Notes: generated by a model from the letters alone, not told the origin. A stretch of 64,000 nt of DNA from Candidatus Bathyarchaeota archaeon (GCA_963702095.1 OY969706.1:2009840-2073839), one strand, 5' to 3'; positions 19,635 to 40,872 are shown, counted from the stretch's first letter. Numbers and translations are program-made.

Positions 19635-20500
19635 CTTGCTACTCCTCCATATCGATCTCTAGTGGCTAATCTAACGCCTACGTTAAGAGCCAATACTATT
19701 AAAATCAACACTAACGATGCACCCCAAGCTTGAGCTTGTGTTTCTAAGGAGGGCATTCTTGAATCATAGAAAATTCTAAGGGGCAATGCATCCATCGGCG
19801 AACTGAGTCCTTGAAAGAAGAAACTACTGCCCAGAATCGTAAGCAGTATGGGCGCGGTTTCTCCTGCGATTCTTGCGACCGCAAGTAATGTTCCGGTAAC
19901 TAAGCCGCCTTTTGCTGAAGGTATTACTATGCTAAGGATGGTTCGCCATCGGTGGACGCCTAAAGCCATTGATGCTTCACGCACGCTGGTGGGTACAAGT
20001 TTGAGGGATTCCTCAGTTGTTCTTGCCACAATGGGAATCATCATGAAAGAAAGTGCGATGGCTCCAGCAATCGGTGAGAAGCCCATGCGTATTAAACCCA
20101 CAACAATTAAGCTGTAAGCTGTGATGCCAACGATTATTGAGGGAAACTCTGTTAATATGTCGTTGATTGTCCGCATCCAGGTGGCATACTTGTTATTTCC
20201 GTATTCAGCAAGGTATACGCCGGATAATACACCGAGCGGAATTCCTATGAGGCTGGTTAAACCCAAAAGAATTAAAGTTCCCTGAATAGCTGGTCCAATA
20301 CCCCCCTGTAATCCGTTAGCAGTTAAAAAGTGCAGGTTAATTACGGGAGCACCTCGGGCTATTACTTCAAAGAGGATACTTAACAGAGGCACAATTGCAA
20401 TTAGGACGCAGAGGAGACAGAGCACGTAGAAGAACTTGTTCCTGAATTTGCGAAAGTGATAGTTGTCAAGTTTTATTTTTTGGAGGATACGGTTTGCCAT
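19631..20500 (-). CDS. pstA: Phosphate ABC transporter permease PstA
   Basis: 289 aa, polytopic, with EAA-like loop '[14 protein letters not shown]'. Its start overlaps the pstC stop and its end overlaps the pstB start. Confidence 0.9.
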
Positions 20501-21435
20501 TACTCTACAGCGCCTCCTTTTACTTTCAGAACACGAGTAACCATTACATGAGCTATGACGTTTATGATTAAACTGATTGCAAGCAGAACTAATCCTGCAG
20601 CGATGTATGCTGAACCTTCAATTGGTGATTGGGAATCGAAGAAGCCGTTGGCTATCAATGAAGGCAAAGTTTGGCCTGGCTGAAACAGTGTAGTGGGCAT
20701 AGCGGCTGGACCTGTGGCGTTGCCTATTACCATGGTTACAGCCATAGTTTCACCTACTGCTCGGCCTAAACCGAGAATGACTGCTCCGAAGATTCCAGAG
20801 CGTCCATAGCTGAGAACCCAATGTCGGATAACTTCCCATTTTGTAGCTCCAATGCTGTAGGCGCCTTCTCTAATCGAGTCTGGAACTGCAGCGATGACTT
20901 CTCGAGAGACTGAAGCAACTGTGGGAATAATCATTATGGATAGAATCAAGCCTGCAGTTAGGAAATCTAAGCCGAAGGGAGTTCCGCTGAATATGGGAAT
21001 CCATCCGAGGTAGGTGTTGAGGGGAATTTCAATGTAGTCTAAGACCCAAAAACGCAGAACAAACAAGCCCCAGAGCCCAAAAATAACACTGGGTACGGCT
21101 GCAAGCATCTCTACCAGGTAGGAAAAGGGAACTTTCACGAATTTAGGAGCCATCTCTACAATAAAAATGGCGATTCCTATGCTTAAGGGTACACCGATTA
21201 ATAGAGCGATTCCGGATGTTATGAGTGTACCAAGAATGTAGGGCAGAACCCCAAAAGATGCAATACCAGGATTCCAGTTTATCCCTGTTAAGAATCTAAC
21301 TCCAAATTCGCTTAGAGCTAAGGTTGATCCGGAAACTAGGACATAAGTATTCAAGATAAAGACGACGGCGGCTGATGCGGCGATTACTGCGACCAATATC
21401 TGGAAGACTTTATCGCCAGTTAGCTTACGCGTCAT
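20500..21435 (-). CDS. pstC: Phosphate ABC transporter permease PstC
   Basis: 311 aa, polytopic, with EAA-like loop 'EGAYSIGATKWEVI'. Operon position is between pstS and pstA. Confidence 0.9.
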   Translation of the reverse strand: MTRKLTGDKVFQILVAVIAASAAVVFILNTYVLVSGSTLALSEFGVRFLTGINWNPGIASFGVLPYILGTLITSGIALLIGVPLSIGIAIFIVEMAPKFVKVPFSYLVEMLAAVPSVIFGLWGLFVLRFWVLDYIEIPLNTYLGWIPIFSGTPFGLDFLTAGLILSIMIIPTVASVSREVIAAVPDSIREGAYSIGATKWEVIRHWVLSYGRSGIFGAVILGLGRAVGETMAVTMVIGNATGPAAMPTTLFQPGQTLPSLIANGFFDSQSPIEGSAYIAAGLVLLAISLIINVIAHVMVTRVLKVKGGAVE

Positions 21436-21510
21436 ACAAATCTGCCTGAGTTTTTAAACTTGAAAGAAAAAAAAGGTTTTGGAGTTTGATTCGTCATATC
21501 ATCGTCGCAT

Positions 21511-22605
21511 TTAATGGGTCGGTATGGCTTGTCCGTTGAAAGTTATTGAGTTAAGCGTTGCTTCGTCGATCTGAACTAGGTTTGAGGGAAGCGTTGCATA
21601 TTCTAGTGAAGGCGCAAGTTGCTGACCGTCATGCACTACATACCACATGTATTGCACAATTGCTGTTGCTTTGTCTATTGTCATGCCATCGACTACGCCG
21701 AGGTCTTTGTATATCAACATGTATGTTGGAGTCACAATTGGGTAGGCTTGAGCACCCGAGGTGTTGAGTATGGAAACATCTGCCCAACTGTCACTTCCAG
21801 ACGGAAGGGAACTTGGAAGCGCTTGAGCTGCTGCTGTTGTTGAGTCCAGTGTGGGGAGAATATAGTTGCCCGCTGGGTTTTGGATTGCTGCCACGGTTAC
21901 GTCGTTTTGTAAGGCGTAGGCTAATTCGATGTATCCGATGGCATAGTCTGTTGTGGTGACTGTCGCTGCAACGGCTGAGTTGCCGCTTTGACCTGTTCCG
22001 ACTGGCCATTGAACAGTGGTGTTTGCTCCGACGTGTGTACTCCATGTGTTACTGACTAGTGAGAGGTATTTTGTGAACCAGTTGGTTGTTCCTGAACCGT
22101 CTGATCTGTGTACAACAGCTATGGAGTGGTGTGGTAACGTCAAGTCTGGGTTGAGCGCTACGATAGCTGGGTCATCCCACGTTGTTATTGTGCCAAGGAA
22201 GATGTTAGCGATTACAGGACCTGAGAGTTTTAGACCGGAGTCAATACCGGGTAGGTTGTAAGCGACTGTGATTGCACCGATGGTTTCTGGGATGTGGACG
22301 GTGTCAGGCGCTGCTGCTCTCTGAGAAGCAGACAAGGGCGCGTCTGAACATGCGAAGTCAACGACTTTGTTTGTGAGGTCGCTGACACCTTTGCCGCTGC
22401 CGCCACCTTGATAGTTAATTTGTACATTTGGTTTCATGGAAGAGTATTCGGTTATTGTTGCATTAAGGAATGGCTGGGGGAAAGTTGCGCCTGAAGCGGT
22501 TAAAGCGATTGTGGGAGTGCTTGGGGTTGATAGATAGACGTATGCTGCTACACCGCCGATTATTATTACGATTGCGACTATTGCTAATATGATTGAAGTC
22601 TTCAA
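21511..22605 (-). CDS. pstS: Phosphate-binding protein PstS (membrane-anchored)
   Basis: 364 aa. N-terminal TM anchor, then 'YQGGGSGKGV' and 'VHRSDGSGTT', typical PstS phosphate-binding loops. TTG start preceded by a GTGAGGA SD-like motif. Confidence 0.9.
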   Translation of the reverse strand: MKTSIILAIVAIVIIIGGVAAYVYLSTPSTPTIALTASGATFPQPFLNATITEYSSMKPNVQINYQGGGSGKGVSDLTNKVVDFACSDAPLSASQRAAAPDTVHIPETIGAITVAYNLPGIDSGLKLSGPVIANIFLGTITTWDDPAIVALNPDLTLPHHSIAVVHRSDGSGTTNWFTKYLSLVSNTWSTHVGANTTVQWPVGTGQSGNSAVAATVTTTDYAIGYIELAYALQNDVTVAAIQNPAGNYILPTLDSTTAAAQALPSSLPSGSDSWADVSILNTSGAQAYPIVTPTYMLIYKDLGVVDGMTIDKATAIVQYMWYVVHDGQQLAPSLEYATLPSNLVQIDEATLNSITFNGQAIPTH

Positions 22606-22743
22606 ACTTATTTCCTCACTTGCCCTAATTGGAAAATAAGTTACTTATATTGAACCTACGTACAAGCTATAAACTATATAGATATAGCATATATAATTAG
22701 TAGATGCTAAAGACACTATATTAGAGCAGGTTGAGACTTTCTC
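22606..22743. promoter_or_regulatory. Divergent pstS / abrB-phoU control region: perfect palindrome ATAAGT-T-ACTTAT (22636-22648) and a TATA-rich block (22666-22700)
   Basis: Read directly from the sequence. The palindrome lies 31 nt upstream of the pstS start. 'CTATAAACTATATAGATATAGCATATATAATTAG' offers several archaeal TATA-like boxes for both directions. Confidence 0.35.
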
Positions 22744-23793
22744 TTGACTAAAGAAGAAGCAAAACTAAACGAGGAACAACGGAAACTCCAAGTCACAGGC
22801 GGATCAACTTTCATACTGTCGCTTCCCAAAGAGTGGGCAACGAAAAATGAACTTAAACGCGGAAGCTCGATGCTGGTCCGCGAAGAAGACGATGGCTCAC
22901 TGTCTATTGCGCCCGCAAGTTTTCCTAAAAAAGAAAAACAAGACGAAGCCTTCATTAGGGTAGGACAAACCGACAACCCTGACGCCGTAATGCGGACAGC
23001 AATATCAGCCTACTTAAACGGCTACAACATACTCCACATTCGATCACAAGGACAAAAAGTCCTCTCATCTAAACTACGCAACCACCTCAAACACTTCGCA
23101 AGACACTACCTAGTGGGCACAGAAATCGTCATAGACACACCCACAGATTTAACGTTACAGGTTTTGCTCAATTATCCTGAATTAACGGTGCAGAATGCTT
23201 TGAGTCGCATGGCAATCATCGCTTCATCCATGCATAAAGAAGCTATCTCGGCACTCAAAAAACTGGATACCCAGAGCGCTAAAGCAGTTATCGAAACAGA
23301 CCGCGAAGTCAACCGTTTCGGCCTCTATATCGTACGCCTGTTGAAGCTGGCGGTTTCAAACCAGAGGATAGTTAAAGAAATTGGGTTAAGCTACCAAAAA
23401 GAATGCTTGGGCTATAGGCTAATCGCTAAAGCGGTAGAGAGAACCGCTGATCACGCCACAAAAATCGCTGAAAACACTCTGCTACTCAAGGAGCCAGCAA
23501 ACGCAGAATTCCTCGAAAAAATCAGCCAGCTAAGTGAGTCGGCGAATTCAATGTTTGACAACGCAATGGAAGCCCTCTTCAAACGTGACTTTAACTTAGC
23601 CGAAAATGTCCTTGAGAAACTCAGTTACGTACATAAAGTTGAGGAAGAAACAGTATTGCGCTTGCCTAACGCAAAAGTCGATGACATGGTCAACTTGAGG
23701 TTGATAATTGAAAGCGTCAGGCGTACTGCGGAGTATGCAAGTGATATTTCTGAAGTTGTGCTTAACCTTAATGTTGAATCGGTCTTAAGCTAA
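22744..23793 (+). CDS. AbrB/SpoVT-type DNA-binding domain fused to two PhoU repeats (archaeal phosphate uptake regulator type)
   Basis: 349 aa, TTG start. N-terminal 'LQVTGGSTFILSLPKEWATKNELKRGSSMLVREEDDGSLSI' is a swapped-hairpin AbrB-like domain. It is followed by PhoU-like helices, including 'AKAVERTADHATKIAE' and 'VRRTAEYASDISE'. Confidence 0.85.
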   Translation: MTKEEAKLNEEQRKLQVTGGSTFILSLPKEWATKNELKRGSSMLVREEDDGSLSIAPASFPKKEKQDEAFIRVGQTDNPDAVMRTAISAYLNGYNILHIRSQGQKVLSSKLRNHLKHFARHYLVGTEIVIDTPTDLTLQVLLNYPELTVQNALSRMAIIASSMHKEAISALKKLDTQSAKAVIETDREVNRFGLYIVRLLKLAVSNQRIVKEIGLSYQKECLGYRLIAKAVERTADHATKIAENTLLLKEPANAEFLEKISQLSESANSMFDNAMEALFKRDFNLAENVLEKLSYVHKVEEETVLRLPNAKVDDMVNLRLIIESVRRTAEYASDISEVVLNLNVESVLS

Positions 23794-23819
23794 TTTTTTT
23801 CTTCCAGAATCCTTTTTTG
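23794..23819 (+). terminator. Oligo-T tracts (T7, T6) directly after the abrB-phoU stop; candidate archaeal terminator
   Basis: 'TAATTTTTTTCTTCCAGAATCCTTTTTTGA' begins at the stop codon. Confidence 0.4.
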
Positions 23820-23887
23820 ATTGCTTACGAAGCGCTTGAAGGCTATGTTTTAAAATAAAAAAGTATCGTTAAGTGAGTTAGTTTGGC

Positions 23888-24067
23888 TCACTGGTATTGC
23901 AGGAAGCAAACAACGTTTTGGGTGTCTATTATACTGCCGTTGTCTATTAGATGGGCGGTTCCATCTGGACAGTAGACTTTGTCGCCCACTATGGCTTTTT
24001 TGTAGCGTGCACTGCATTCTTTTAGTTTACAGCAGCCATCACAATCTCTTGACAGCATACGTATCAT
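23888..24067 (-). CDS. Possible 59-aa Cys-rich small protein (absent from the ORF track)
   Basis: Own translation: MIRMLSRDCDGCCKLKECSARYKKAIVGDKVYCPDGTAHLIDNGSIIDTQNVVCFLQYQ. AAGGAGAG lies immediately upstream of the ATG, which is unusually close spacing. Confidence 0.3.
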   Translation of the reverse strand: MIRMLSRDCDGCCKLKECSARYKKAIVGDKVYCPDGTAHLIDNGSIIDTQNVVCFLQYQ

Positions 24068-24214
24068 CTCTCCTTGTTTTCAATAGTGTATCACCGGAAT
24101 ACGCCTATATAGATAATCTTCATAAAATATATACTCTAAATATCCAGGCGTGCCATCCGAAAGACCACTAACAAAGAGGAAACTTTAAGAAACAAGAACC
24201 CCAAAATCAACCAG

Positions 24215-24871
24215 ATGCAACATAACAGGTTAAAAGCCAAAGGCATATTCTTAGATTTAGACGGAACCCTCGTCGACTCCACAGACGCCTACATAGAAGC
24301 CGCACGCATCGCCTTTACAGCCCTCAATAAACCCTTACCGCCAAAAGAAATTTTACTGGAAATCCCCCGCCGCATAGAACAGCGGTTAAGCATCGACGGT
24401 TACACCGAGGGCTGCACCCAAAAGTTTCTGCCCATATACCTCCAAGCATACTACTCCACCACAGAGAAACACGCAAAACTCCTCCCCAACGTGGCAGCCG
24501 CCCTCGACACCTTATCAAAAAAATCCAAGCTTGCACTCATCACCATGCGCCATGTACCCAACGAAGTCATCTATAAAGAACTGGATTACCTCGGTATTGC
24601 CAAGTATTTCAGCCATATTATGACTGCACTGGACACAGCTAAACCGAAGCCTTCACCTGAAGCGTTAATCCGCTGTGTGGAAACCTTGGATTTAGAGATG
24701 CACCAGTGCCTCATCGCCGGCGACTCCATTAACGATATGCGGGCGGGAAAAGCGGCAGGCGCAAAAACCGTGGCGGTGCTCTCAGGACTCTATGGAAAAG
24801 AGGAATTGGCAAAGGAATATCCCGATTTAATGTTGGCGGATGTTAGTTTGTTGCCAGAGCATGTTGAATAG
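24215..24871 (+). CDS. HAD-superfamily hydrolase (phosphoglycolate phosphatase / PpaX-like subfamily IA)
   Basis: 218 aa. Motif I 'IFLDLDGTLVDS', motif II 'LALITMR', motif IV 'IAGDSINDMRAGKAAGA'. Confidence 0.85.
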   Translation: MQHNRLKAKGIFLDLDGTLVDSTDAYIEAARIAFTALNKPLPPKEILLEIPRRIEQRLSIDGYTEGCTQKFLPIYLQAYYSTTEKHAKLLPNVAAALDTLSKKSKLALITMRHVPNEVIYKELDYLGIAKYFSHIMTALDTAKPKPSPEALIRCVETLDLEMHQCLIAGDSINDMRAGKAAGAKTVAVLSGLYGKEELAKEYPDLMLADVSLLPEHVE

Positions 24872-24971
24872 GACTTCTTTGGATATATCGATTCCCGTAA
24901 TATTACCAGTTTTTGCTTAAGGCGTTATATGTGAACTAACAAAATAAAGTTTAATTGGAACCTCAATCTTT

Positions 24972-25619
24972 ATGGTTGTGGAGAGGGCTTCAGCGGGAAT
25001 CATAATGAATTTCGTAGAGATTATGATAGGGGAGAAATTAAGGGACGCCGATCCAGCCTTGGATATTATGGGTTCGGACCGCAAAGTCTTGCAAGTGGCG
25101 TGTCAGGACTTCACAAACTACCTTAAATTCCATTGGAACCTAATTGGGAAAGAGGCAAACCAATGCGAAACGGTAGAAAAACTCGAGACACTTTTCAAAG
25201 AAAACGCTGATGAACTAGACGCATTTTTAACTGTCTGGTGCAACATCTGGTTTAAGAAGTGGAAGCAACGGGTCAAACTGCTCATCGGCAACCAAAACGC
25301 CAACAAATGGAATAAAATGACCAAAAACATAACCGACGCAGAACCCCTCTGGCACAAAATCGAGCGCAAACAGGAACTCCAAGAAATCGTCGTTGCAACT
25401 CTGATTAAAAACGGGGAAATTTGCGGTACAGAAATTTTAGCCGAGAATCTCCTCAAGATGGAGCTTGGCGAAAAATCTGTCCAAAACTTAACTGAAAGGG
25501 AAAGGGTGCTTATTATTTTGAACAATTCGTTGCGTAAGGCGCGTGAGATGGCGCAAAGCCGTGGTCCCCTGATCTTCGTTAAGATCGATAAGGGCTACTA
25601 TAACACGGCAGCTGAGTAA
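24972..25619 (+). CDS. Hypothetical protein (no family recognised)
   Basis: 215-aa ORF with helical, Lys/Glu/Trp-rich composition. Confidence 0.45.
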   Translation: MVVERASAGIIMNFVEIMIGEKLRDADPALDIMGSDRKVLQVACQDFTNYLKFHWNLIGKEANQCETVEKLETLFKENADELDAFLTVWCNIWFKKWKQRVKLLIGNQNANKWNKMTKNITDAEPLWHKIERKQELQEIVVATLIKNGEICGTEILAENLLKMELGEKSVQNLTERERVLIILNNSLRKAREMAQSRGPLIFVKIDKGYYNTAAE

Positions 25620-25755
25620 ACTTCCCTAACTTTCCTTTTGTGATTACTGAACGGTTTTTGTGTTTTAATGCATACGCTATGCTGATTTGATGCTAAAAAG
25701 AATGTAACAAATTGAAAGGACAAACGCTTGCTTTAAAAGAGAGTTTTGGCGGCGT

Positions 25756-25944
25756 TCAACAGACTCTTTGCCTCTGTAGAGTCTTGGTTCGCCAACTGTA
25801 GCGCCTCATGGTTGCTTGTTCGCCGTAACCGCAGGCTCCACAGCGTTTGTTGCGTACGTGATAGGCACGTCTGCCGCAGCGCCTACATTTTATGTGGACA
25901 ACTTTGCCCTGGCGCTTGCCCATCGAAGGAGTACCCTTACCCAT
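25756..25944 (-). CDS. rpl37e: 50S ribosomal protein L37e
   Basis: 62 aa. 'MGKGTPSMGKRQGKVVHIKCRRCGRRAYHVRNKRCGACGYG' is the L37e zinc ribbon. Confidence 0.95.
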   Translation of the reverse strand: MGKGTPSMGKRQGKVVHIKCRRCGRRAYHVRNKRCGACGYGEQATMRRYSWRTKTLQRQRVC

Positions 25945-25949
25945 TTAAC

Positions 25950-26177
25950 TCACCTGGGTGGGGGTGAAATAAGGACTACGTTGTCTCCTCGAACGATAAT
26001 TAGCCCTAACTTCTTCTGGTTTTCAATGGCAGTTGTGTCTTCTGTTTCTTCTAGAACCAAGTTTAAGTGTTGATCGAATCCTTTGAGCCGTCCTCTGAGG
26101 CTTTTGCCGCCTTTTAAGCGTACAAGCACTATTTTGCTGAGGTTCTGTTCAAGGATTTCGGTTGTCATTTCGCTCAT
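25950..26177 (-). CDS. Archaeal Sm-like protein (LSm/SmAP)
   Basis: 75 aa. Sm1 'LVRLKGGKSLRGRLKGFDQHLNLVLEETED', Sm2 'IIVRGDNVVLISP'. The conserved Sm-L37e gene pair is present. Confidence 0.92.
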   Translation of the reverse strand: MSEMTTEILEQNLSKIVLVRLKGGKSLRGRLKGFDQHLNLVLEETEDTTAIENQKKLGLIIVRGDNVVLISPPPR

Positions 26178-26364
26178 ATTGGAATCCTCAAGTATCTTTA
26201 TCTCTTCTATACTTTATATCTGCCCATTTAAACCTATCTCAAAGACATCTCAAAGACTCACAGAAATAGGCATTTAGGGCCTGTTCGGATTCTGGGCAAG
26301 GGAAAAGCACGTTTTCTGCCAAGGTAGGAAAAACGAGGAAGAAAAAAATGAAAGGGAGCAAGCT

Positions 26365-26541
26365 TTAGGACTTGCTTGTTTTTAGCTCTGTATTCTCTTT
26401 TTTAAGATCAGCATTCTCCTCCATCAACGCCTTCATGACGGCGTTAAGCTGAGTCATCATGTCGTTGATGCGCAGGTTCAACATACCAATTTGCTGCATG
26501 ATTGGAGATACTTCTGTGGGTGCTTGTGTCAAGGGATTCAC
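26365..26541 (-). CDS. Possible small coiled-coil protein immediately downstream of the tail-fibre-like gene
   Basis: Own translation: (V)NPLTQAPTEVSPIMQQIGMLNLRINDMMTQLNAVMKALMEENADLKKENTELKTSKS. GGAGGTGA overlaps the GTG, so the in-frame TTG at 26532 (5 nt after the SD) may be the real start. Confidence 0.35.
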   Translation of the reverse strand: MNPLTQAPTEVSPIMQQIGMLNLRINDMMTQLNAVMKALMEENADLKKENTELKTSKS

Positions 26542-26571
26542 CTCCGGTCTTGTATTGTGCCTGTTAGTTGT

Positions 26572-29463
26572 TTAGGAGGCTGTTTGCTGATTCAACAGTT
26601 GTTTTTCAAGGGCTATTATGCGGTCACGGAGTTTCTTCACTTCAATGAGCATTGGGATTGCGAGTTTTTCGTATTTGACACCCTCAACTTCTCCAAAGTT
26701 GTTTCTCCATGTAAGAAGAGTACTGACGGTATCAACGTCTTCGGCGATTAATCCTATTTCTTGTTGTGTGCCTCTTAGTGCCTGCTGGTCAGCTGTCCAG
26801 TAGAAAGTCACTGGATTTAGGTCGTATATCCAAGAGCAATCTTCAATGGGTACAATGTTATCTTTGTATTTTTTGGCTGAGCCGCTGTTGTACAGGGTCC
26901 CGTTTACATTGGAATAAACAGTGCCGCCACTGCTTAGTGATTGAGGAACAGAGATATAACCATCCCACCAAACTTGGAATAAATTAGTTCCCGATGAGTA
27001 CCTGTCGATATGCCAGTATTTGCCGGTTGAGCCACCTTCAAAGTAGAAGTTGCCCCATTGGTTCTCTATTATTAGGCCGCCACTGGGTGTTCCGTTATTG
27101 CTATTGGCGTTGTACGATTTGAAAAATGCCCCAGATGTTGTGGATGGCGTAAGAAAACCATTGTAACCGCCTGTTACTATACCTTTCGAGCTATCTAAGG
27201 GAACTAGGTAATTAGTGTACAATGAACCTATGTTTAAGGCGCCATAGTAATATGTGGAGCTGTTGTAGACGAAAGAGCCGCAGCCTGAATCATAGCTTGC
27301 CCCGAGCCGAAGTGTGTAGTTGTTTGTCCAAATCAAGTAAGCGTAGTTTCCACTGCTTGGATTGAAGTTTATTTGTCCTGCCATGTTGAGTATGCCATTT
27401 ATGTTGAGGTCGTCGCTTGTGGTTATTTTGTTTGTTCCGCCGCTGCCAACAGTTAAGTATGCTGAGTTGTTACCGTTGAAGATTACATGGTCGCAATATA
27501 CATCATCGCCAGCATAGACGCTATATGTTACGTGATGGCTTCCGTCAGTCGTCGCATCGCAATCAATGAAGCACATAGCTGCTGCTGAACGATAAATTGG
27601 GACATCTCCGCCGATCAGTAAACCGCCAGATGAACCCTGGGTTGGCAATGATAACTTGCCTGTTATTGTTGTAGCTCCAAAAGTTTGCGGTAAAGTCCCA
27701 GCAGTATTAGTGGCATAAACCTGTGACCCTGACGGACTTGACACTATAGGAGCAAAATAGCCGTTTGTGCCATACGCATTGTTTTCATCAACTCTCAACG
27801 TTATATCCGCATACGCTTGCTGATAGATATATAGGTAATAGTTGTTGCTCCCATCATTGTAAATCGCAAAATATGACCTGTTTGAACTATTGTCGCTTAG
27901 AGCACCATAGTTGATGTGAACAGGAGCCGTGGCTCCACTTCTTGTTCCCGCTATTAGACGCGTGCCGGATGATGTGTTAACTCCAAAGTTTCGACCATCA
28001 GTCATAGTTACGTCAACATAGCCAATTTCGCCGCTGCCAGTAGAGCCTACTATGTTATTGATTTTTCCTATACACAACCATCGTGCAGAAGCCGTGTAAT
28101 TAATACTTATTACTTGAAAACCATTTGCGACCTTTAACCCAGCAAACGTTGGTATACTTGTTGTTAACAGTGGATTGCTTCCAGCGATGGTTGCTGAGAT
28201 GTCTACTCCGTCTACTGTATAGCCGCTACCCATCGCAACATTGACGTTGAATGTAGTCGAGCCCGTCACTATGCCACCGTTCCAAGTTACATTAGACCAT
28301 GTTGGCGTATTGCCGGTACCTTGCGAAGTTAAGACTTGTCCTGTTTGTCCCACGTTGCCATTAAGGTTTATTTGTGCAGTTACACCATTTAGAACCAGAT
28401 TGTATGTTCTGACGTTGGTGCCGTAGATGTCATACCACCTGTTTGTTGAAGAACCAAGCGTGAAGGTTTTAGCGGGGTTCTGGGGAATAATGCCACCTGT
28501 GGAGGCGGAAGTATCAAAGCCCAAAATCAACCCTGAACCATCAATAGCCATAGTTATGTAGCCGCTGCCGACCACACCCATCTGCAGATTCCTAGTGCAG
28601 ACGCTGTTCCACATCTTCTCCATATTGCCGACAAACGATTGATTATCATTAACGGGGGCCACTGAGCAACCGTTTTGGAAAGACGCATTCCCCATCACAG
28701 TATCGCCCTCAACGGTCAAGTTGCCATGCGCAGTCAAGTTACCCAAATCCAAATGAGCAGGATCCTCGCTCGCGAATTTTTTCAGAAAAAGGGTATCGAA
28801 ATTCCCTGCATAGTTAGAGGTTGGTCCCTTGTCATACCAATGAGGTGCTGATCCTTCCTCATGATACTCGTATAAGTGATTATCGTTTGTATTGATGTAA
28901 AGTTGCAATTGCTGATGTGTTGGCGGTTCACCTGACAATTGGTCAATGTGGTCTAGGATTCCCATACCAGAGTGACCCAATACAATCTTTGGGGGATCAC
29001 ACTGCCAATTTAAGCCGCTCCCAAGCGTTAATACACCTTGATTGCTGCATATAAAGCCGCCCGCAGAGAAGTCCTTCTGCACAACTAATCCTGTGTTAGT
29101 GGCTAAAAGTGGTTCATATTCAGGAGGGTCATCGAATTGACTAATTATTCCAAAAAGGGATGCTGTTTTTATATATTGGGTACTGGTGTCTTTGAATGTG
29201 ATTTTACTTTTATTAGCAGCATTTTCTGGGAGTCCTGCAGGTGACCATATGCCATTTGACCATCCCCAGATATCTCCCACAATTGTTGCTTTATTAATTA
29301 CAGAAAAGTTATAAGGAAGAATCAGAGAATCACCTATCTGAAGGGCTAAATTGTCATAATCATCAAAGATTGTCTGTAGATCAATTTGATCAGCGTCAGC
29401 ATTCTCTTTAATAGTGAGTATGGGTTTGCAAGTTAAGTGAAGAAAATTTCCATCATCTACCAT
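26572..29463 (-). CDS. Virus-like tail fibre/spike protein with C-terminal S74-type intramolecular chaperone (auto-processing) domain
   Basis: 963 aa with no signal peptide and long Gly/Asn/Thr/Ser-rich beta-rich repeats. The C-terminus 'SAKKYKDNIVPIEDCSWIYDLNPVTFYWT...EIGLIAEDVDTV...GVKYEKLAIPMLIEVKKLRDRIIALEKQL' follows the S74/endosialidase-chaperone pattern (S.x.xK.NI.PI...L.PV.F.W...G.IA..V....V.Y..L...LIE..K.L...I..LE). GGAGGTGA lies 6 nt upstream of the ATG. Confidence 0.8.
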   Translation of the reverse strand: MVDDGNFLHLTCKPILTIKENADADQIDLQTIFDDYDNLALQIGDSLILPYNFSVINKATIVGDIWGWSNGIWSPAGLPENAANKSKITFKDTSTQYIKTASLFGIISQFDDPPEYEPLLATNTGLVVQKDFSAGGFICSNQGVLTLGSGLNWQCDPPKIVLGHSGMGILDHIDQLSGEPPTHQQLQLYINTNDNHLYEYHEEGSAPHWYDKGPTSNYAGNFDTLFLKKFASEDPAHLDLGNLTAHGNLTVEGDTVMGNASFQNGCSVAPVNDNQSFVGNMEKMWNSVCTRNLQMGVVGSGYITMAIDGSGLILGFDTSASTGGIIPQNPAKTFTLGSSTNRWYDIYGTNVRTYNLVLNGVTAQINLNGNVGQTGQVLTSQGTGNTPTWSNVTWNGGIVTGSTTFNVNVAMGSGYTVDGVDISATIAGSNPLLTTSIPTFAGLKVANGFQVISINYTASARWLCIGKINNIVGSTGSGEIGYVDVTMTDGRNFGVNTSSGTRLIAGTRSGATAPVHINYGALSDNSSNRSYFAIYNDGSNNYYLYIYQQAYADITLRVDENNAYGTNGYFAPIVSSPSGSQVYATNTAGTLPQTFGATTITGKLSLPTQGSSGGLLIGGDVPIYRSAAAMCFIDCDATTDGSHHVTYSVYAGDDVYCDHVIFNGNNSAYLTVGSGGTNKITTSDDLNINGILNMAGQINFNPSSGNYAYLIWTNNYTLRLGASYDSGCGSFVYNSSTYYYGALNIGSLYTNYLVPLDSSKGIVTGGYNGFLTPSTTSGAFFKSYNANSNNGTPSGGLIIENQWGNFYFEGGSTGKYWHIDRYSSGTNLFQVWWDGYISVPQSLSSGGTVYSNVNGTLYNSGSAKKYKDNIVPIEDCSWIYDLNPVTFYWTADQQALRGTQQEIGLIAEDVDTVSTLLTWRNNFGEVEGVKYEKLAIPMLIEVKKLRDRIIALEKQLLNQQTAS

Positions 29464-29642
29464 ATGCTCACCTCCAAAGCGTTAAAGCACTCTGAAGTTA
29501 CCATATTAGATCTGATTTGAAACTTATTTTCTAACATTTTTTTTACCTCTAATAGTGCTAACAACAATAAAATGAATAAGCCGAATTGTACCACCCATTG
29601 GACATTGTGTTGGGCAGTCTGATGACCGCTCTGTTGGGTCAA
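29457..29642 (-). CDS. Possible small single-TM protein upstream of and overlapping the tail-fibre gene start
   Basis: 61-aa ORF (TTG start) with one hydrophobic helix 'VVQFGLFILLLLALL'. There is no other support. Confidence 0.25.
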   Translation of the reverse strand: MTQQSGHQTAQHNVQWVVQFGLFILLLLALLEVKKMLENKFQIRSNMVTSECFNALEVSIW

Positions 29643-29747
29643 TGAGAAAAATTAGAGATAAAGAGAACAATGCGCTAATAATCAGAATTAGTTATATGAG
29701 TAAAGCATATGAATAACAAGCGATGAATAGACTTAGGTCACTGATAT

Positions 29748-31076
29748 ATGAAGAAACCGCTCTTGTGCTTGTTTTTACTCATGGTGCTTGCATGTATCGC
29801 GTTAGTTAGTAGCTTCCACTCATCCATGGGACAAGTAACGAAGGAAGTTAAAGGCATATTAGATTCAAACACTGCATGGACAAAGGGAAACAGCCCCTAC
29901 ATGCTTACAGGACCTATATTAGTGAATAGCGGTGTTACTTTAACAATTGAACCTGGCGTTACAGTAAATCTTGGCAGTTATTACATACAAGTAAACGGAA
30001 CATTAAACGCTATAGGTACTACCAAAGATAACATACATTTCAACGGAGGCGGCGGCACCTTGCCAGGTGCTATCGCCTTCACCAGTTACAGTCCAAATGG
30101 GTGTAGCACCATAGAGAATGCTGTCATAAATGCGTCTAACTCAATAGCCATAGGCATCGGTGATACTTCCCCTAAAATAAACAACAACACTATTTATGGG
30201 ATTATTTGGGCAGCAGCCTCTACACCGACCGGGGAACCATTAAAGTCATCAACCCCAATTATCACCAATAACAATCTCATAGCAAAAAACGGTGAGGGAA
30301 GTGTATTAGAAATGAGTACTTCACCTATAATCGCCAATAATACAATTAAAGGAGACATAAGAGCAGATTCAGAGGATGTGATAATTTCCGGCAATTATAT
30401 CGAAGGCTCAGTAGTATCGAACGGACAAATAATCAGCAACTTTTTGTCTGGCTGTGGTGGCGGAAATGGCATACAGGCAGGCTTTGGGGGCATCATAGAT
30501 CACAATCTAATCACAAACTACGACAATGCGATTGAACTCGGAAGAGGTGCTTCTCCAATAATTAGAAACAACACTATTATCAACAATGTTAACGCTGTCT
30601 CGGTTTCTGGGTACATCAAAAGTTCATACAACCCCCAAATTTACTGGAATAATATCTACAACAATTCAGGTTACAGCATTAACCTGTATATGAGTGAAAC
30701 CTACCCAACTAGTAACATTAATGCAACATGCAATTGGTGGGGAACAACCAATACTCAAGCAATAAATGAGGCTATTCATGATAACGCGGACGATTATAAC
30801 TTGGGCACGGTTAATTTTGTTCCCATCTTAACTGAACTTAATCCCCAAGCTATGCCTAACATAACTGTATTAACGCCACTGCCTTCATCATATCCTACCC
30901 CCAACGCATCAGGCGCGACTTCTCAGAACCCAGTAACCCCAAACCAACCCATTTCTGGAGAGTCTATCCTGTTCGGTTTAGACTGGGTGGAAGTCGCCAT
31001 AGCGGTTTTACTTGCGGTGATTGCTGTTTTGTTGGTTGTTGTGGTTGTGTTTTTGCGTAGGAGAAGCGTTGGGTAG
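29748..31076 (+). CDS. Secreted right-handed parallel beta-helix (NosD/PbH1-like) repeat protein with C-terminal TM anchor
   Basis: 442 aa with a signal peptide. Repeated 'I.NN.I...' beta-helix rungs ('PKINNNTIYG', 'PIITNNNLIA', 'PIIANNTIKG', 'PIIRNNTIIN'). A Pro/Thr linker is followed by 'VAIAVLLAVIAVLLVVVVVFLRRR'. Confidence 0.8.
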   Translation: MKKPLLCLFLLMVLACIALVSSFHSSMGQVTKEVKGILDSNTAWTKGNSPYMLTGPILVNSGVTLTIEPGVTVNLGSYYIQVNGTLNAIGTTKDNIHFNGGGGTLPGAIAFTSYSPNGCSTIENAVINASNSIAIGIGDTSPKINNNTIYGIIWAAASTPTGEPLKSSTPIITNNNLIAKNGEGSVLEMSTSPIIANNTIKGDIRADSEDVIISGNYIEGSVVSNGQIISNFLSGCGGGNGIQAGFGGIIDHNLITNYDNAIELGRGASPIIRNNTIINNVNAVSVSGYIKSSYNPQIYWNNIYNNSGYSINLYMSETYPTSNINATCNWWGTTNTQAINEAIHDNADDYNLGTVNFVPILTELNPQAMPNITVLTPLPSSYPTPNASGATSQNPVTPNQPISGESILFGLDWVEVAIAVLLAVIAVLLVVVVVFLRRRSVG

Positions 31077-31220
31077 CGCTGTTTTGTTCTGATTTTTTTG
31101 TTTGCATTGTGTCGATTATGCTATTTAAATCAGAAAAAGCAGTCTATACATGCTTTCACACCCACATGGCGGCTGCCTCTGCATGGAACCATGTACCGCG
31201 TGTAGAGCGAAACGCATTTG

Positions 31221-31327
31221 CCACACCGAAACAGACAAAGAAGCAAGCTGCAATCCAAAAAAGCAACCGTCCCCTCAACCATTCTTGTGGCGCCCCGCAA
31301 AACGCCACACCCACATAAAGAGAGAAA
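31221..31327 (+). repeat. Copy 1 of a roughly 107-nt inverted repeat (partner at 40461-40567, opposite strand)
   Basis: CCACACCGAAACAG (14 nt) and AAAACGCCACACCCACATAAAGAGAGAAA (29 nt) are identical to the reverse complement of the partner. The distance between the two blocks is the same in both copies. Overall identity is roughly three quarters by hand alignment. Confidence 0.7.
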
Positions 31328-31476
31328 AGCAGTTTATCCCTTGTTTTATGGAAGGAAGTCGGTGGGAGCATTAGACGCTGCCCACTGGTCCACCAGCAAC
31401 AAAATAGTGTAGCAGTTATCTATGCACAAATCTTTATGGGGTCAATCTGTAAACATCCATCAGAGGTTAACCGTAA

Positions 31477-32073
31477 ATGCAGAATATAGTTGAGGCGCCT
31501 GCTGAAGTCAACGTGTATGAAAAGTTTAGGAACCCCATTCAAGAAATCATAAACTTTACTCGGACAATCGATGAAGGATACCGCGAAAAATGCTTCGAAG
31601 TTTTACTAAACCACTACTTATCTGGCGGCTTAGAAGTGAAAACCTGCGGCGTCGTTGAATCACCCCTAAAGAACATGTTTGAAATGGCAAATTTTTCGGG
31701 TGAAACCAAAGTTTTCCTTGAACAGAACAACATATCTGAACAAGTACTCACCAAACTGTTCACTAAAATAAAAGGCGACATTTGCCCCATCTACAAAATC
31801 ACTGAAAACCGAAGGGCAAAAGCCCAAATCCAAATAGCTCTCCTAACAGCCCTTGAGAATGCACTCAGAGGAGCTAATGGAACTTTCGAGTTTTCAGTCA
31901 ACACTGTTAGGCAGAGATGTATGGAAATAAAAATGTATGATGGAAGAGACTACTACATCAATTTCATGGATGCTGCAGGCTTGTTTGGCAATCTCAACTA
32001 CGAAGTAATTAAGCTCAGTGGGACAGGCAAGACAGAATTAGCAAGCATAGTCGCGGCCCTTACCAAGCAATAG
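31477..32073 (+). CDS. Hypothetical protein (no family recognised)
   Basis: 198-aa ORF with an ATG start and protein-like composition. Confidence 0.5.
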   Translation: MQNIVEAPAEVNVYEKFRNPIQEIINFTRTIDEGYREKCFEVLLNHYLSGGLEVKTCGVVESPLKNMFEMANFSGETKVFLEQNNISEQVLTKLFTKIKGDICPIYKITENRRAKAQIQIALLTALENALRGANGTFEFSVNTVRQRCMEIKMYDGRDYYINFMDAAGLFGNLNYEVIKLSGTGKTELASIVAALTKQ

Positions 32074-32182
32074 TATGTCCGTTTCAACCGGATACTAAAC
32101 AAGCATCCGACACCTCCATGGCTTCCTGGCTTGCACTTATAAGCTGCGCACCTAAATCATAAAGACAGGGGGCACCCATAAC

Positions 32183-32809
32183 ATGGCAACACCAATTGAC
32201 TTCCTAATAATCTTTGCAACATCCTTTGCCCTAAACCTCATTCCGTTTGCGGGCCCCTCAAACCTTCTAATTGCATCCACAGCAGCGATTGGTCTAGCCG
32301 GCGCCGACGCAGGCACCCTTGCACTTGCCGCAGTAACCGTTGCCCTTGCATCCGCCCTCGCAAAAGGCATCCACTACATGGTCACATTCTTTGTCAGTGG
32401 ACACCTCAGCCAAAAACGTCAGCAGCGGCTGCATCAAGACGCAGACAAAATCAGGCGATGGGCTTTTCCACTGCTTTTTGCGGTGGCTGCCACGCCTTTG
32501 CCTGATGAACCGGTGGTTATTCCATTGGGGTTGATGAAGTATAGTCCGGCGAAGTTTTTCGGCGCTTACTTTTTGGGTAAATTAACGATTGCTATGGTTG
32601 GGGTATTCATTGGTAAAGAAGCCAGTAACATGTTTGCACCGTGGCTGACGCCTGACCAGATCTTCATACTATCCATCGTTGTATCAATCATCCTAACAGT
32701 AGCCATCACCTATGTCCTCTTAAAAGTGGACTTAAACAAGTTAGCCGAAAAGTACATGCACCGCAAACCTGCAGGGACACAAGAAAAGCCATATAAACCC
32801 AGCCAATAA
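32183..32809 (+). CDS. YqaA/DedA-like (VTT/SNARE-associated domain) membrane protein
   Basis: 208 aa. 'LNLIPFAGPSNLLIAS' and 'LFAVAATPLPDEPVVIPLGLMKYSPAKFF' resemble YqaA-type DedA family motifs. Confidence 0.6.
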   Translation: MATPIDFLIIFATSFALNLIPFAGPSNLLIASTAAIGLAGADAGTLALAAVTVALASALAKGIHYMVTFFVSGHLSQKRQQRLHQDADKIRRWAFPLLFAVAATPLPDEPVVIPLGLMKYSPAKFFGAYFLGKLTIAMVGVFIGKEASNMFAPWLTPDQIFILSIVVSIILTVAITYVLLKVDLNKLAEKYMHRKPAGTQEKPYKPSQ

Positions 32810-32814
32810 CCCAT

Positions 32815-33330
32815 TTGAGACGATACAGTATGCCAACCAAACAGCGTCGATACCCCTTAAAAATGAAAGAAGCAAAACAGGTCCTTGAAGAAGCATCTAC
32901 CAAACTCAACATAAATGTGGAGGAGCTCTTCGGCGCCAAAGCCAACGTTGAAGTGGTTGAATCCGACGTAGGCTTGATTTACCTCATCGGGGGCAAACCA
33001 GTCCTTTTCAAAGCTGAGGATAAAGTGTTGCCGACACTGCTTTTTACTGAATTCACAACTCAGTCCCCTAAAATAGTTGTGGATATGGGGGCGGTTCCCT
33101 ATGTTTGCAAAGGCGCAACGGTGATGGCTCCAGGTATTGTGCGGGTCGAAGGCGACTTCGGCGTGGGCGATTTAGTGTTGGTGGCTGATGTTAAGTTTGG
33201 GAAAGCGTTGGCAGTGGGGGAAAGCCTCATAGATGCTGCAACCGCGAGAGTTACCAAGAAGGGACCGGTAGTCAAAAACCTGCATTATGTGGGCGATAAA
33301 ATCTGGGATTACATAAAAAACATTGACTGA
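32815..33330 (+). CDS. PUA-domain RNA-binding protein (archaeal Tma20/MCT-1-like pre-PUA plus PUA); start uncertain
   Basis: 171-aa ORF. 'DMGAVPYVCKGATVMAPGIVRVEGDFGVGDLVLVADVKFGKALAVGESL' is a typical PUA core. Confidence 0.8.
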   Translation: MRRYSMPTKQRRYPLKMKEAKQVLEEASTKLNINVEELFGAKANVEVVESDVGLIYLIGGKPVLFKAEDKVLPTLLFTEFTTQSPKIVVDMGAVPYVCKGATVMAPGIVRVEGDFGVGDLVLVADVKFGKALAVGESLIDAATARVTKKGPVVKNLHYVGDKIWDYIKNID

Positions 33331-33353
33331 ATAAAAAAAGGATGCTTTGGCTC

Positions 33354-33602
33354 CTACATTGGGCTTGCCATTGTTTCATGTGTAGGTGCATTTCGTGCTT
33401 TAAAGTTGTCCGAAGATTGCCTTACACGGGTTAATAGCAAGTCAATTTCACGCATAGCCTCATCACGTCCCATCGTGTTGGTCCAGCCGTCCATTTTGCG
33501 GTCTTCGACTCTCTCAGCGATGTCGTCTGCAATACATTCTTCAAAGCCAGCGTGTTGGAGCTCATGCTTCAACTCACCCTTGTTAAAACTATCTTTAACC
33601 AA
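33354..33602 (-). CDS. Hypothetical small protein
   Basis: 82-aa ORF (TTG start), acidic and helical. It has only a weak ATP-cone-like flavour, so no call is made. Confidence 0.35.
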   Translation of the reverse strand: MVKDSFNKGELKHELQHAGFEECIADDIAERVEDRKMDGWTNTMGRDEAMREIDLLLTRVRQSSDNFKARNAPTHETMASPM

Positions 33603-33720
33603 ATAAGTTCACCTCCAAAAGAATCCTCAAATCCAGACAATACTGGAACGGTGTATAGCATTAAAACATAAGTGACTGTGCCAAACCAACAACAGGGCAG
33701 GGCAAACAAAAGATGCTTCG

Positions 33721-34185
33721 CTAAAAAGTTGGGAAGAAGGGGGATGGATAAGCAATTCCGAAGAGGAAACCGAACAAAAGACTAATCACAATAAACACAA
33801 CCCAAGCAAGAATCGCTATAGCTATCGCCCGCAGCCAGCCAGTACCGAAACTAACCTTATACACCCCAATCCACGCTAAAAGCGCCAAAAGATAGGCAAA
33901 GATATAGGCGGTTGCGCCGACCACTGATCCAAGTGCAAAGCTAACCAGCCAAGTCACCAGGAAAAAAACGATGGGACCCGCAAGCGTAGCGAGGAGAGCT
34001 CCGCCAAAGCTGGCGTGTCCACCCGTCAACGCCTTTGCAGCTAACCAAACAGGAATAGAAACAATAATCCAGAGAACAACCAGTCCAATAATTGTAAAAA
34101 GAATGCTTTCTAAGCTTAGAGCCGCGAAAATCAAGCAAATATTCCTCAATAGAGATTGTGGGTGCTGCCTTTTAAGGGTTACCAA
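33721..34185 (-). CDS. Hypothetical polytopic membrane protein
   Basis: 154-aa ORF with 4-5 hydrophobic helices. Confidence 0.55.
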   Translation of the reverse strand: MVTLKRQHPQSLLRNICLIFAALSLESILFTIIGLVVLWIIVSIPVWLAAKALTGGHASFGGALLATLAGPIVFFLVTWLVSFALGSVVGATAYIFAYLLALLAWIGVYKVSFGTGWLRAIAIAILAWVVFIVISLLFGFLFGIAYPSPFFPTF

Positions 34186-38321: not shown

Positions 38322-39810
<1,489 letters not shown>

Positions 39811-39892
39811 TTATGCACTCCGATGTGATTTGTCGGATCTTTTGTTTTTTGTGTGGTACGAATATATTGACACATTTCCTCGCATTCTCTAA

Positions 39893-40460: not shown

Positions 40461-40567
40461 TTTCTCTCTTTATGTGGGTGTGGCGTTTTATGGGGTGCCC
40501 CAAGATGGGTTGAGATGGCGATGGCTTTTTGTGGAGGCGTTGCGTTTTGGCGCCTGTTTCGGTGTGG
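40461..40567 (-). repeat. Copy 2 of the roughly 107-nt inverted repeat (partner at 31221-31327)
   Basis: Plus strand TTTCTCTCTTTATGTGGGTGTGGCGTTTT (40461-40489) and CTGTTTCGGTGTGG (40554-40567) are exact reverse complements of the copy-1 terminal blocks. Confidence 0.7.
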
Positions 40568-40872
40568 AAAGTGCGATTTCTTCCACAAGTGACCAGCAAT
40601 GAACAGCGCAATGCAAGCGGGCACTAGCATAGCCCTCCGACAACCTAAGCCACCTCTCACACCCAACCAACCCCGCCCCAAAAAAGAATCCCCACAAACA
40701 AAAACACAACAAAAAAGCACAATACAACCAACAAAACCCCTCACCCCAAAACAGCCCAAAGCCCATCAAAATAGCCCCGACACACCGCAACCAAACCCAC
40801 ATGCCGACTCCACAAATCAGGTCCACTTGCCAAACGGACAGCCCCCATCAAACGCAACCGCCACGGCGTTTC

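Follow-up and report, generated by a model that had tools for sequence, protein, structure and literature searches.

A three-gene cassette beside the Sm and L37e genes

The stretch of DNA analysed here, called the window, comprises 64,000 nucleotides (nt) of a Candidatus Bathyarchaeota archaeon (GCA_963702095.1 OY969706.1:2009840-2073839). It is a piece of an archaeal chromosome, contains an archaeal 16S rRNA gene and is collinear in its neighbourhood with Bathyarchaeia genomes of the Bathy-6 type. The subject is an open reading frame (ORF) of 963 amino acids (aa), whose protein is recorded on a contig of 2.94 Mb and which an earlier model-made description from the DNA alone, the sequence-only reading, had called tail-fibre-like. 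There is good support that the ORF is a genuine gene and encodes a receptor-binding fibre of viral type, whose S74 chaperone domain appears competent. It is also well supported that the fibre gene sits in a discrete, recently acquired cassette of three genes, together with a gene for a small coiled-coil protein and a divergent gene for an anchored surface protein. Positions are those of the window, and the features are listed below with the evidence for each.

26242..31181, no strand: inserted cassette of 4,940 bp (blastn borders against the closest relative, absence in 80 relatives, GC)
26342..26348, minus: oligo-T tract (T7), 17 nt past the stop of the coiled-coil gene and ahead of the Sm promoter
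26365..26532, minus: coiled-coil gene, 55 aa, TTG start at 26530-26532 (own GGAGGTGA at 26538-26545, homologues, ratio of non-synonymous to synonymous differences)
26572..29463, minus: fibre gene, 963 aa, ATG start, TAA stop at 26572-26574 (ORF, Pfam, Foldseek against BFVD)
26575..26880, minus: Peptidase_S74 domain, aa 862-963 (Pfam match, invariant Ser862 and Lys867, AlphaFold confidence, pLDDT, of 80-93)
26863-26865 and 26878-26880, minus: codons of Lys867 and Ser862, within the S74 domain
26881..28698, minus: shaft and distal part of the fibre, aa 256-861, rich in G, N, T and S (composition, pLDDT <50)
28699..29463, minus: N-terminal module, aa 1-255 ('MV-DG-F--LTCKP-LTIK' extension and family-conserved module at aa ~42-255)
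29457..29642, minus: 61-aa ORF, TTG start, probably not a gene
29464..29747, no strand: divergent intergenic region, GC 0.345, presumed to hold both promoters, overlapping the 61-aa ORF
29468..29475, minus: Shine-Dalgarno sequence of the fibre gene, GGAGGTGA, 4 nt ahead of the ATG, complementary to the 3' end of the 16S rRNA
29748..31076, plus: surface protein gene, 442 aa (signal peptide, right-handed beta-helix, S/T/P-rich stalk, C-terminal transmembrane anchor ending RRRSVG)
31154..31324, plus: repeat element of ~170 nt with CCACAC/GTGTGG motifs (nhmmer), at the right cassette border, just outside

The adjacent Sm protein was used to scan species-representative genomes, and 80 Bathyarchaeia loci were obtained. 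Nearly all of them had the gene order PUA, mem208 (a membrane protein), Sm, L37e, unk215, HAD, a small Cys protein, PhoU and PstS, with about 170 nt between the end of mem208 and Sm. The flanks of the cassette are thus cellular genes conserved across the 80 relatives. The fibre, coiled-coil and beta-helix genes were present within 10 kb in none of the 80 Sm loci, and the insertion was specific to this genome among the 81 compared. The closest relative was L014 (loci carry L numbers and homologous proteins P numbers), with 78-88% nucleotide identity in the flanks. According to blastn, window positions 20000-26241 and 31182-33714 were collinear with L014, and 26242-31181 (4,940 bp) stood in place of 785 bp. 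The insertion thus separates mem208 from Sm. The content of this interval was exactly three genes, the coiled-coil gene, the fibre gene and the divergent 442-aa gene. A contig of 5,135 bp from an unrelated sequencing run spanned just the cassette and encoded identical proteins. The genome of L014 also had a fibre cassette (P0002), located on a different contig and flanked by Vps4/CdvA and a DUF1269 gene; cassette positions therefore differ among close relatives.

The block had been described as lying right beside the Sm-L37e pair and as richer in A+T than its neighbours. The position was correct. The shift in composition was real but modest, with a GC content of 0.427 against a window mean of 0.459 (standard deviation 0.022), which is the 8th percentile of equal-sized windows. 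GC at third codon positions was ~0.42, compared with 0.45-0.56 for neighbouring genes.

Searches for viral genes, tRNA genes and attachment (att) sites around the cassette covered the 64-kb window of the 2.94-Mb genome. No tRNA gene was found in it and no homologue of large terminase (TerL), portal, tube, neck or integrase. The suggested check for att-like repeats around 26.2-31.1 kb was negative, as direct repeats around 26.2-31.2 kb were limited to 12-nt near-matches at chance level. The remaining genes of the window were cellular (polyphosphate kinase, Ppx, histidine kinase, Pst, PPDK, V-ATPase), and no Rfam family matched the cassette region at E<=1. An integrated provirus or prophage remnant, with integrase, att site or tRNA and other viral genes between cellular flanks, was rejected accordingly. 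The proposed remnant of a tailed virus held good for the viral type of the fibre and for its modules, which occur in tailed-virus contigs, but the locus is not a usual prophage remnant and consists of just three genes. A tailocin or extracellular contractile injection system was also discarded, since homologues of tube, neck or tail proteins were not seen in the window, and neither were sheath or baseplate genes; the suggested tailocin part found no support. A diversity-generating retroelement target was rejected as well, with no Pfam reverse transcriptase among the genes neighbouring the cassette.

Exactly at the left insertion border (26241/26242), just upstream of the Sm promoter region, a perfect tandem duplication of an 11-nt unit (ATCTCAAAGAC, two copies, 26236-26257) was observed. 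L014 carried a single diverged copy of this unit. The interval between mem208 and Sm (window 26178-32182) was a variable hot spot: it measured ~170 nt in most relatives and 2-7 kb in about ten genomes (L015, L027, L033, L036, L039, L052, L061, L064 and L072), where its contents were unrelated to the fibre cassette. The gene unk198 (31477-32073) was common only to the window, L014 and L029. Another indel of a surface protein was seen in L014, where a gene for an extra secreted, membrane-anchored protein of 859 aa (3922-6501) was absent from the corresponding window junction at 33714-33722.

Architecture of the fibre protein

The 3' end of the 16S rRNA in this window, ...GATCACCTCC, pairs with the GGAGGTGA in front of the fibre gene, which bears out the perfect ribosome-binding site that had been reported. 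The first 40 residues (MV-DG-F--LTCKP-LTIK) were conserved in several homologues, indicating that the ATG is the true start. As initially described, the very large ORF encodes no signal peptide; it has no transmembrane segment either, and the top 19-residue Kyte-Doolittle mean was 1.34. The description as rich in N, G, T and S was likewise correct for composition, with these residues making up 38% of the protein and 41-48% of aa 260-850, but not for repeats, of which none were found by protein self-BLAST or TRF.

The C-terminal assignment to S74 was confirmed. Pfam Peptidase_S74 (PF13884) scored 28.8 bits at aa 862-913, above its gathering score of 22 (E 1.5e-6, positions 1-52 of the 58-position model), and the same family matched 29 of 57 members of the fibre family. 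PHROG 1786 matched aa 850-956. Ser862 and Lys867, five positions apart, were invariant in an alignment of 16 C-termini, along with a W-Y-L-PV-F and G-IAE core, and a coiled-coil helix followed at aa ~935-962. When a profile of the S74 alignment was compared with PDB, the meaningful matches were all C-termini of phage tail fibres, with marginal E-values: the long tail fibre of S16 (6f45, E 0.009), T5 pb1 (8hqz) and the tail fibre 8jov. The S-x4-K pair was aligned with that of 8hqz and 8jov. As to the fold, Foldseek gave a weak match to the solved chaperone domain 3gw6 in PDB (E 2.7) and matches to the 'IMC auto-processing domain' (IMC, intramolecular chaperone) among the predicted structures of BFVD with E down to 4e-7 and a probability of 0.99. 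Searches of the whole fibre and of its last 141 aa against PDB with phmmer returned noise only (phycocyanin, gp41 constructs). Among GenBank phages, only aa ~815-960 found partners, which were annotated as minor tail or tail proteins.

The N-terminal module recurred at varying positions in hundreds of proteins, and its conserved part was preceded by one of two alternative extensions. It had no relative in Pfam, PHROG or PDB in profile searches and is presumed to be the attachment end of the fibre. The shaft segments matched different homologues piecemeal, for example aa 260-420 with 75% identity in L002 and aa 680-850 with 55% identity in the viral locus L149. An exhaustive search yielded 2,499 cluster representatives at E<=1e-3, whose matches fell mainly on the N-module (aa ~45-255) or on the C-terminal region (aa ~670/840-960). 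In an all-against-all comparison, modules were shuffled between homologues. A conserved proximal module combined with variable distal parts, the mark of mosaic evolution, was found in the all-against-all comparison, in the search of representatives and at a syntenic locus.

A first AlphaFold model from 9 sequences had a pLDDT of 38 and was discarded. The model md8fd0220ee5d, from 57 sequences, reached 75-97 at aa ~50-250 and 80-93 at aa ~850-963. In the Foldseek check suggested at the outset, the predicted viral structures of BFVD gave 30 hits at E<=1e-3, of which all named ones were tail fibres, tail proteins or S74/IMC proteins; the TM-scores of these matches were about 0.1, the model being poor in the middle.

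Many family members without S74 ended in another module (YFD-YDDLAL-K-GEK...LP-DYD... and a coiled coil), among them P0153, P0174, P0194, P0195, P0209, P0226 and P0235. This module formed a separate ORF of 105 aa in L005 (12852-13169) and may be a second kind of fibre-folding module. On the 12.6-kb contig of P0009 (JGI 3300075153), three consecutive genes (687, 620 and 543 aa) all ended in Peptidase_S74.

The partner genes

The coiled-coil gene follows the fibre gene on the same strand. The fibre gene had been described as flanked by a possible 61-aa transmembrane ORF upstream and a 58-aa coiled-coil ORF downstream; the ORF call starts the latter at a GTG at 26541. The coiled-coil gene proved to be real, with the TTG located 5 nt after its own Shine-Dalgarno sequence as the likelier start, giving 55 aa. 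The 61-aa ORF is probably not a gene, because it has no homologue in any other cassette, a sub-threshold Hol_Tox match and a position in the A+T-rich divergent promoter region; no Shine-Dalgarno sequence precedes its TTG. A holin was rejected for it on the same Hol_Tox score (15.4 bits against a cut-off of 23.3) and the lack of homologues in cassettes. Archaeal RNA polymerase terminates at oligo-T, and the T7 tract after the coiled-coil gene is likely to be the end of a fibre/coiled-coil transcription unit, judging by its placement.

In each of four unrelated loci, the ORF that comes directly after the fibre homologue encodes a protein with 67-75% identity to the coiled-coil protein. About five clean heptads were visible in its sequence, and the stretch QQIGMLNLRI-DMM-QLN was invariant. 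A profile search placed at least 628 clusters in the family, and the named ones were nearly all Bathyarchaeia. Between cassettes, the proportion of non-synonymous differences (pN) of the gene was 0.09-0.15, against a proportion of synonymous differences (pS) of 0.67-0.87. The coiled-coil gene is the most conserved part of the cassette system. The 55-aa protein had no match in Pfam, NCBIfam or GenBank phages, and its best PHROG match was phrog_3671 (unknown function, E 7e-4). The JGI label 'regulator of replication initiation timing' (YabA) was rejected as a generic coiled-coil resemblance, scoring 20.2 bits against 30 in Pfam and 19.1 against 130 in NCBIfam. A known tail-fibre chaperone (Tfa/Caudo_TAP, gp38, gp57A) was rejected too; no family matched, and only the position after the fibre was shared.

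The 442-aa protein matched Pfam Beta_helix with 26.4 bits against 25.9 and showed hydropathy maxima of 2.84 at the N-terminus and 3.67 at aa 418. An oligo-T tract followed its gene at 31093-31099. The protein shared 39% identity with the divergently encoded protein beside the fibre of L002 and 33-38% with its counterparts in L005 and L110. In other cassettes the neighbour was a protein of 258-297 aa with a different ectodomain and the same stalk and anchor. An unrelated-looking beta-helix surface protein was also encoded at window 36729-37874, which suggests that the 442-aa type is a normal class of surface protein for the organism. PADLOC returned no match for the fibre, coiled-coil, beta-helix, p85, p105, p132 or anchor proteins.

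A protein of ~105 aa (p105) with two hydrophobic helices and a holin-like size and topology was encoded after the coiled-coil gene in many cassettes, with ~80% identity (L013 8252-8569, L110 6486-6803, L107 10252-10569, L009 8224-8622). It was absent from the window cassette and had no database match.

Recurrence in Bathyarchaeia and in tailed viruses

There is good support for a wide distribution of the cassette family in Bathyarchaeia and for its presence in their tailed viruses as well. The same layout appeared in the gene maps of about 30 loci, and the three-gene unit recurred at many unrelated chromosomal sites. Where enough sequence was available (~30 loci), the coiled-coil gene nearly always came after a large ORF of 303-1324 aa, about a dozen of which ended in S74. 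An ORF of ~85 aa sometimes lay between the two, and the ORF of ~105 aa with two hydrophobic helices often followed. The fibre and beta-helix genes had ratios of non-synonymous to synonymous substitution rates (dN/dS) of about 0.2-0.3 between cassettes, with pN far below a saturated pS.

On the viral side, L149 was a contig of 23 kb from IMG/VR (GC 0.47) with large terminase, portal and scaffold genes. It encoded a protein of 1768 aa that combined the N-module (32% identity), the segment of aa 680-850 (55%) and S74. More than 20 IMG/VR contigs shared its terminase at 70-83% identity. In L124, a fibre gene, the coiled-coil gene and the gene for an anchored beta-helix protein of 515 aa were followed by a TerL fragment 84% identical to that of L149. 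L121 carried a tail protein gene, 68% identical to one of L006 at the protein level, then an S74 fibre and the coiled-coil gene. L006 held tube/minor tail, Neck1 and tail proteins, then the cassette and then an intein-containing terminase 42% identical to that of L149. Both kinds of anchored surface protein stood beside TerL in L230. The high-GC, podovirus-like L007, with an SU10-type capsid and adaptor, had a distant coiled-coil homologue after a tail-module protein of 812 aa; its large proteins were not similar to the fibre. Taken together, at least one viral lineage therefore carries all three components of the cassette. The window copy did not lie in a tailed-virus tail or late module within the 64 kb, and its homologues in L149, L124, L121 and L006 did. 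IMG/VR scans with full-fibre patterns and with one N-module pattern gave nothing. In the literature consulted on viruses of Bathyarchaeia, no description of the three cassette components was found.

The large terminase of L006 (18100-21030) contained its intein, Pfam Intein_splicing, between Terminase_6N and Terminase_6C.

Exchange at a shared chromosomal locus

In L110, L009 and L114, a cassette occupied the same chromosomal locus, with flanking housekeeping proteins 83-93% identical. The coiled-coil protein was about 70% and p105 about 80% identical between them. For the fibre, identity (~35%) was confined to the N-module, and the anchored protein reached 32-44% along part of its sequence. 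For the small genes, pN/pS was 0.17-0.31, with a pS similar to that of the housekeeping flanks. Nucleotide homology was continuous in the left flank and from the coiled-coil gene rightwards, and broken across the anchor and fibre genes, with breakpoints that differed between genome pairs. One fibre segment was 82% identical between L009 and L114 at a pS of 0.38, compared with about 0.7 in the flanks; this low value suggests recent exchange.

The shared locus lay 150-250 nt from a tRNA-Arg(CCG) gene, which in L010 is the exact insertion point of an integrase-bearing element. L114 had a cassette-only island of 6.2 kb between two copies of a 20-nt repeat derived from the 3' end of the tRNA-Arg (4640-4659 and 10827-10846). 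The tRNA-Arg site and the shuffled interiors imply that cassettes can arrive by site-specific integration and are reshuffled by recombination. The data from this locus fit long-term vertical retention and repeated integration with reduction at the same att site alike. The coiled-coil gene of L114 (about 9990-10160) had a premature stop after ...AALKN.

Border repeat element and other window features

The element at the right cassette border is non-coding and had at least five motifs of the CCACAC/GTGTGG type, which formed three short inverted repeats. With nhmmer, nine distinct copies were found in about 3 Mb of DNA, six of them in loci with the cassette or the coiled-coil gene. The copies, which differed by indels, were located at window 31154-31324 (plus) and 40463-40598 (minus), L014 9030-9172, L060 8461-8629, L002 3636-3801, L008 3519-3688, L094 5460-5623, L125 134-302 and L127 80-246. 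None was present in 80 viral S74 loci. The element abutted the cassette in the window, L125 and L008, in L125 and L008 with the same position and orientation relative to it. It also occurred at the orthologous spot in L014, which has no cassette there, and at synteny breakpoints in L014 and L060. Tests as an RNA on both strands revealed hardly any covariation, and Rfam gave no family; the element therefore resembles a DNA site bound by protein more than an RNA. Its membership in the cassette is uncertain, and it might serve for recombination or as a target site.

Further along the window, an ORF for a Cys-rich protein of 59 aa (CDGCC...C...C; 23888-24067, minus) was found at the same syntenic position in most of the 80 relatives with 55-90% identity, and is probably a real small zinc-binding protein. 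A copy 67% identical to it was located in L006 (12769-12894), just downstream of the fibre cassette in a virus-like island. The 16S rRNA gene (38322-39811, minus) was not followed by a 23S gene within the window, and the NosD/beta-helix gene at 36729-37874 lay directly downstream; the rRNA genes thus appear to be unlinked.

Interpretation of the cassette

We lean towards reading the cassette as a host-recognition module of viral origin, exchanged between viruses and chromosomes and retained in the chromosome. S74 domains help three chains to fold and then cut themselves off at a serine. Three chains of the fibre would accordingly assemble with the help of the C-terminal domain, which is predicted to cut just before Ser862 and to leave a mature fibre of ~861 residues. 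Docking on a particle or another partner would fall to the N-terminal module, and binding of a surface target to the distal part. Position and conservation suggest that the 55-aa protein may be an assembly or attachment cofactor acting on a conserved feature of the fibres, and that the 442-aa protein may be a surface-exposed partner which, for example, masks or modifies the receptor of the fibre. Cassettes would be transferred by site-specific integration, as at the tRNA-Arg att site of another locus, and by homologous recombination through conserved segments flanking a hypervariable interior. The cassette of the window would then be an intact orphan module that looks expressed. Its role in the cell might be that of a reservoir of fibre variants for resident or incoming viruses, exclusion based on the surface protein, or a use of its own.

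Several observations weigh against this interpretation. The cassette of the window has no tRNA, integrase or att repeat of its own. The N-module was found in just one IMG/VR contig, L149, and most loci with the coiled-coil gene have cellular flanks, so a purely cellular role is possible. The purifying selection seen between cassettes may date from a time when viruses carried them. The coiled-coil and beta-helix proteins match no known tail-fibre chaperone or exclusion protein. The AlphaFold pLDDT was below 50 across the middle of the fibre, leaving aa 260-780 without confident structure, and Foldseek of the fibre model against PDB, the other half of the suggested check, found nothing significant (none below E 0.5).

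The three genes may simply be the last piece of a deleted provirus, recent enough to be intact and without present function. The restriction of the insertion to this genome and its slightly foreign composition would fit such an inert leftover, as would the cassette-only island of L114 with its tRNA att-like repeats, no integrase left and a premature stop in the coiled-coil gene. In related viruses, moreover, fibre modules stand at the genome end beside TerL, so an att-proximal piece could survive deletions. However, all three ORFs are intact, the Shine-Dalgarno match extends over the full 8 nt and the genes end at oligo-T. Random decay would not produce a sharp-bordered unit of three genes that recurs at many sites, and the pN/pS of the small genes at the shared locus also speaks against inert DNA. 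On balance we regard a mere leftover as unlikely. A domesticated cellular system, in line with the domesticated fibre or adhesin that the sequence-only reading had named as an alternative, would be a hypervariable surface structure owned by the host and independent of virions, serving adhesion, self/non-self recognition or defence, with p105 exporting the signal-less fibre in many cassettes. It would account for the longer coiled-coil loci, most of which show no viral hallmark nearby, for the lineage in which the cassette stays at one locus, its small genes conserved and its fibre and surface protein a hypervariable pair, and for the very large coiled-coil family, almost entirely from Bathyarchaeia. 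The divergent gene always encodes a typical archaeal surface-anchored protein, and p105 has two hydrophobic helices. But the fibre has no signal peptide and the window cassette no p105, all three components occur in tailed-virus contigs, and PADLOC found no match. The locus in question is an att site at a tRNA, where L010 carries an integrase element in tandem, which also explains the positional conservation. Such domestication seems doubtful to us. A version in two parts, in which a self-cleaving, signal-less fibre with its 55-aa factor is matched by a co-varying anchored protein, for self/non-self recognition, adhesion or virus exclusion, and new variants are traded with tailed viruses through accretion at the tRNA att site and recombination in the flanks, is likewise given little weight.

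The cassette could also act in trans and supply an alternative receptor-binding protein to a provirus, a phage-tail-like particle or a particle resembling a gene transfer agent (GTA) encoded elsewhere in the 2.94-Mb genome. Fibre and spike genes of the Rhodobacter capsulatus GTA (RcGTA) lie apart from the main cluster, which offers a parallel. The conserved N-module with its two alternative extensions suggests docking on a conserved partner, and L006 intersperses tail genes, the cassette and the terminase with cellular-type genes. A related Bathy-6 genome contains a siphovirus-like provirus of 46.8 kb, described as 'common in Bathyarchaeia' (PMC11697101), which also speaks for this arrangement. 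Against it stands the window, 64 kb without a tail, baseplate or capsid gene; nothing points to coordinated regulation, and we judge this arrangement quite improbable. Finally, the protein might not be a fibre at all and instead be some other self-processing protein that borrowed S74. S74 domains do occur outside virions, as in the eukaryotic MYRF transcription factors, and the middle 500 residues lack confident structure. Yet the protein has no transmembrane or DNA-binding domain, and its composition, mosaic evolution, BFVD matches and viral homologues all point to a fibre, which makes this explanation very hard to maintain.

Comparison with known systems

The fibre shares with the S74 proteins K1F endosialidase and T5 pb1, which bear a C-terminal intramolecular chaperone domain (CIMCD), the C-terminal position of the domain, the Ser and Lys five residues apart, the GxIAE core and the terminal coiled-coil helix. 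It differs from the S74 proteins of isolate phages in an identity of just 28-35% over the last ~110-200 aa, in its archaeal host, in a gene outside a virus genome and in a cleavage that is predicted. The cryptic prophages Rac, Qin and e14 of Escherichia coli K-12 carry orphan stf/tfa pairs of a fibre and an assembly-protein gene. As in these, a fibre gene and a small accessory gene have been left in a chromosome without the rest of the phage, the fibres are mosaic, and recombination with incoming phages could take place. Unlike stf/tfa, the cassette is a recurrent unit of three genes with a divergent surface-protein gene, and its 55-aa coiled coil has no similarity to Tfa. Conservation of the 55-aa protein also far exceeds that of the fibres, in contrast to Tfa, which varies along with the fibre tip. 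Another parallel is T4 gp57A, a small coiled-coil chaperone needed for trimerisation of tail fibres. Both are very small all-helical coiled coils tied to fibre genes, and action on many fibres would fit the conservation. No sequence similarity was detected between them, gp57A is not encoded directly after each fibre gene, and the 55-aa protein would be at most a putative chaperone.

T5 Llp, encoded beside pb5, and Cor of phi80- and N15-like phages are surface-exposed proteins beside the receptor-binding protein (RBP) and block the receptor. In the cassette, too, an RBP gene adjoins a gene for a surface-anchored protein, and the two co-vary from locus to locus. Instead of a lipoprotein, the partner in the cassette is a large beta-helix or an ectodomain of ~200 aa on a type-I membrane anchor, and it would block a receptor only by analogy. 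Cis-mobilisable elements (CIMEs) undergo tandem accretion with integrative elements at tRNA att sites. The island of L114, without integrase between tRNA-derived repeats, and the integrase element of L010 in tandem at the same tRNA resemble them. This likeness was seen at another locus than the window, and mobilisation would follow by analogy.

Significance

Bathyarchaeia, which are mostly uncultured, rank with the most abundant archaea of anoxic sediments, and almost nothing is known of their virus recognition and surface display. The cassette offers a widespread handle on both, in the form of a conserved marker gene, a hypervariable fibre and a paired surface protein; the small partner counts at least 628 clusters, and the fibre relatives about 2,500. 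In metagenomes, the coiled-coil gene makes a simple probe for receptor-binding genes of archaeal tailed viruses, and the pairs of fibre and surface protein may point to virus receptors. If the stand-alone copies are only leftovers, they are an ordinary though neatly delimited trace of virus traffic. If they do function, archaea would offer an example of cells that keep a host-recognition module of viruses.

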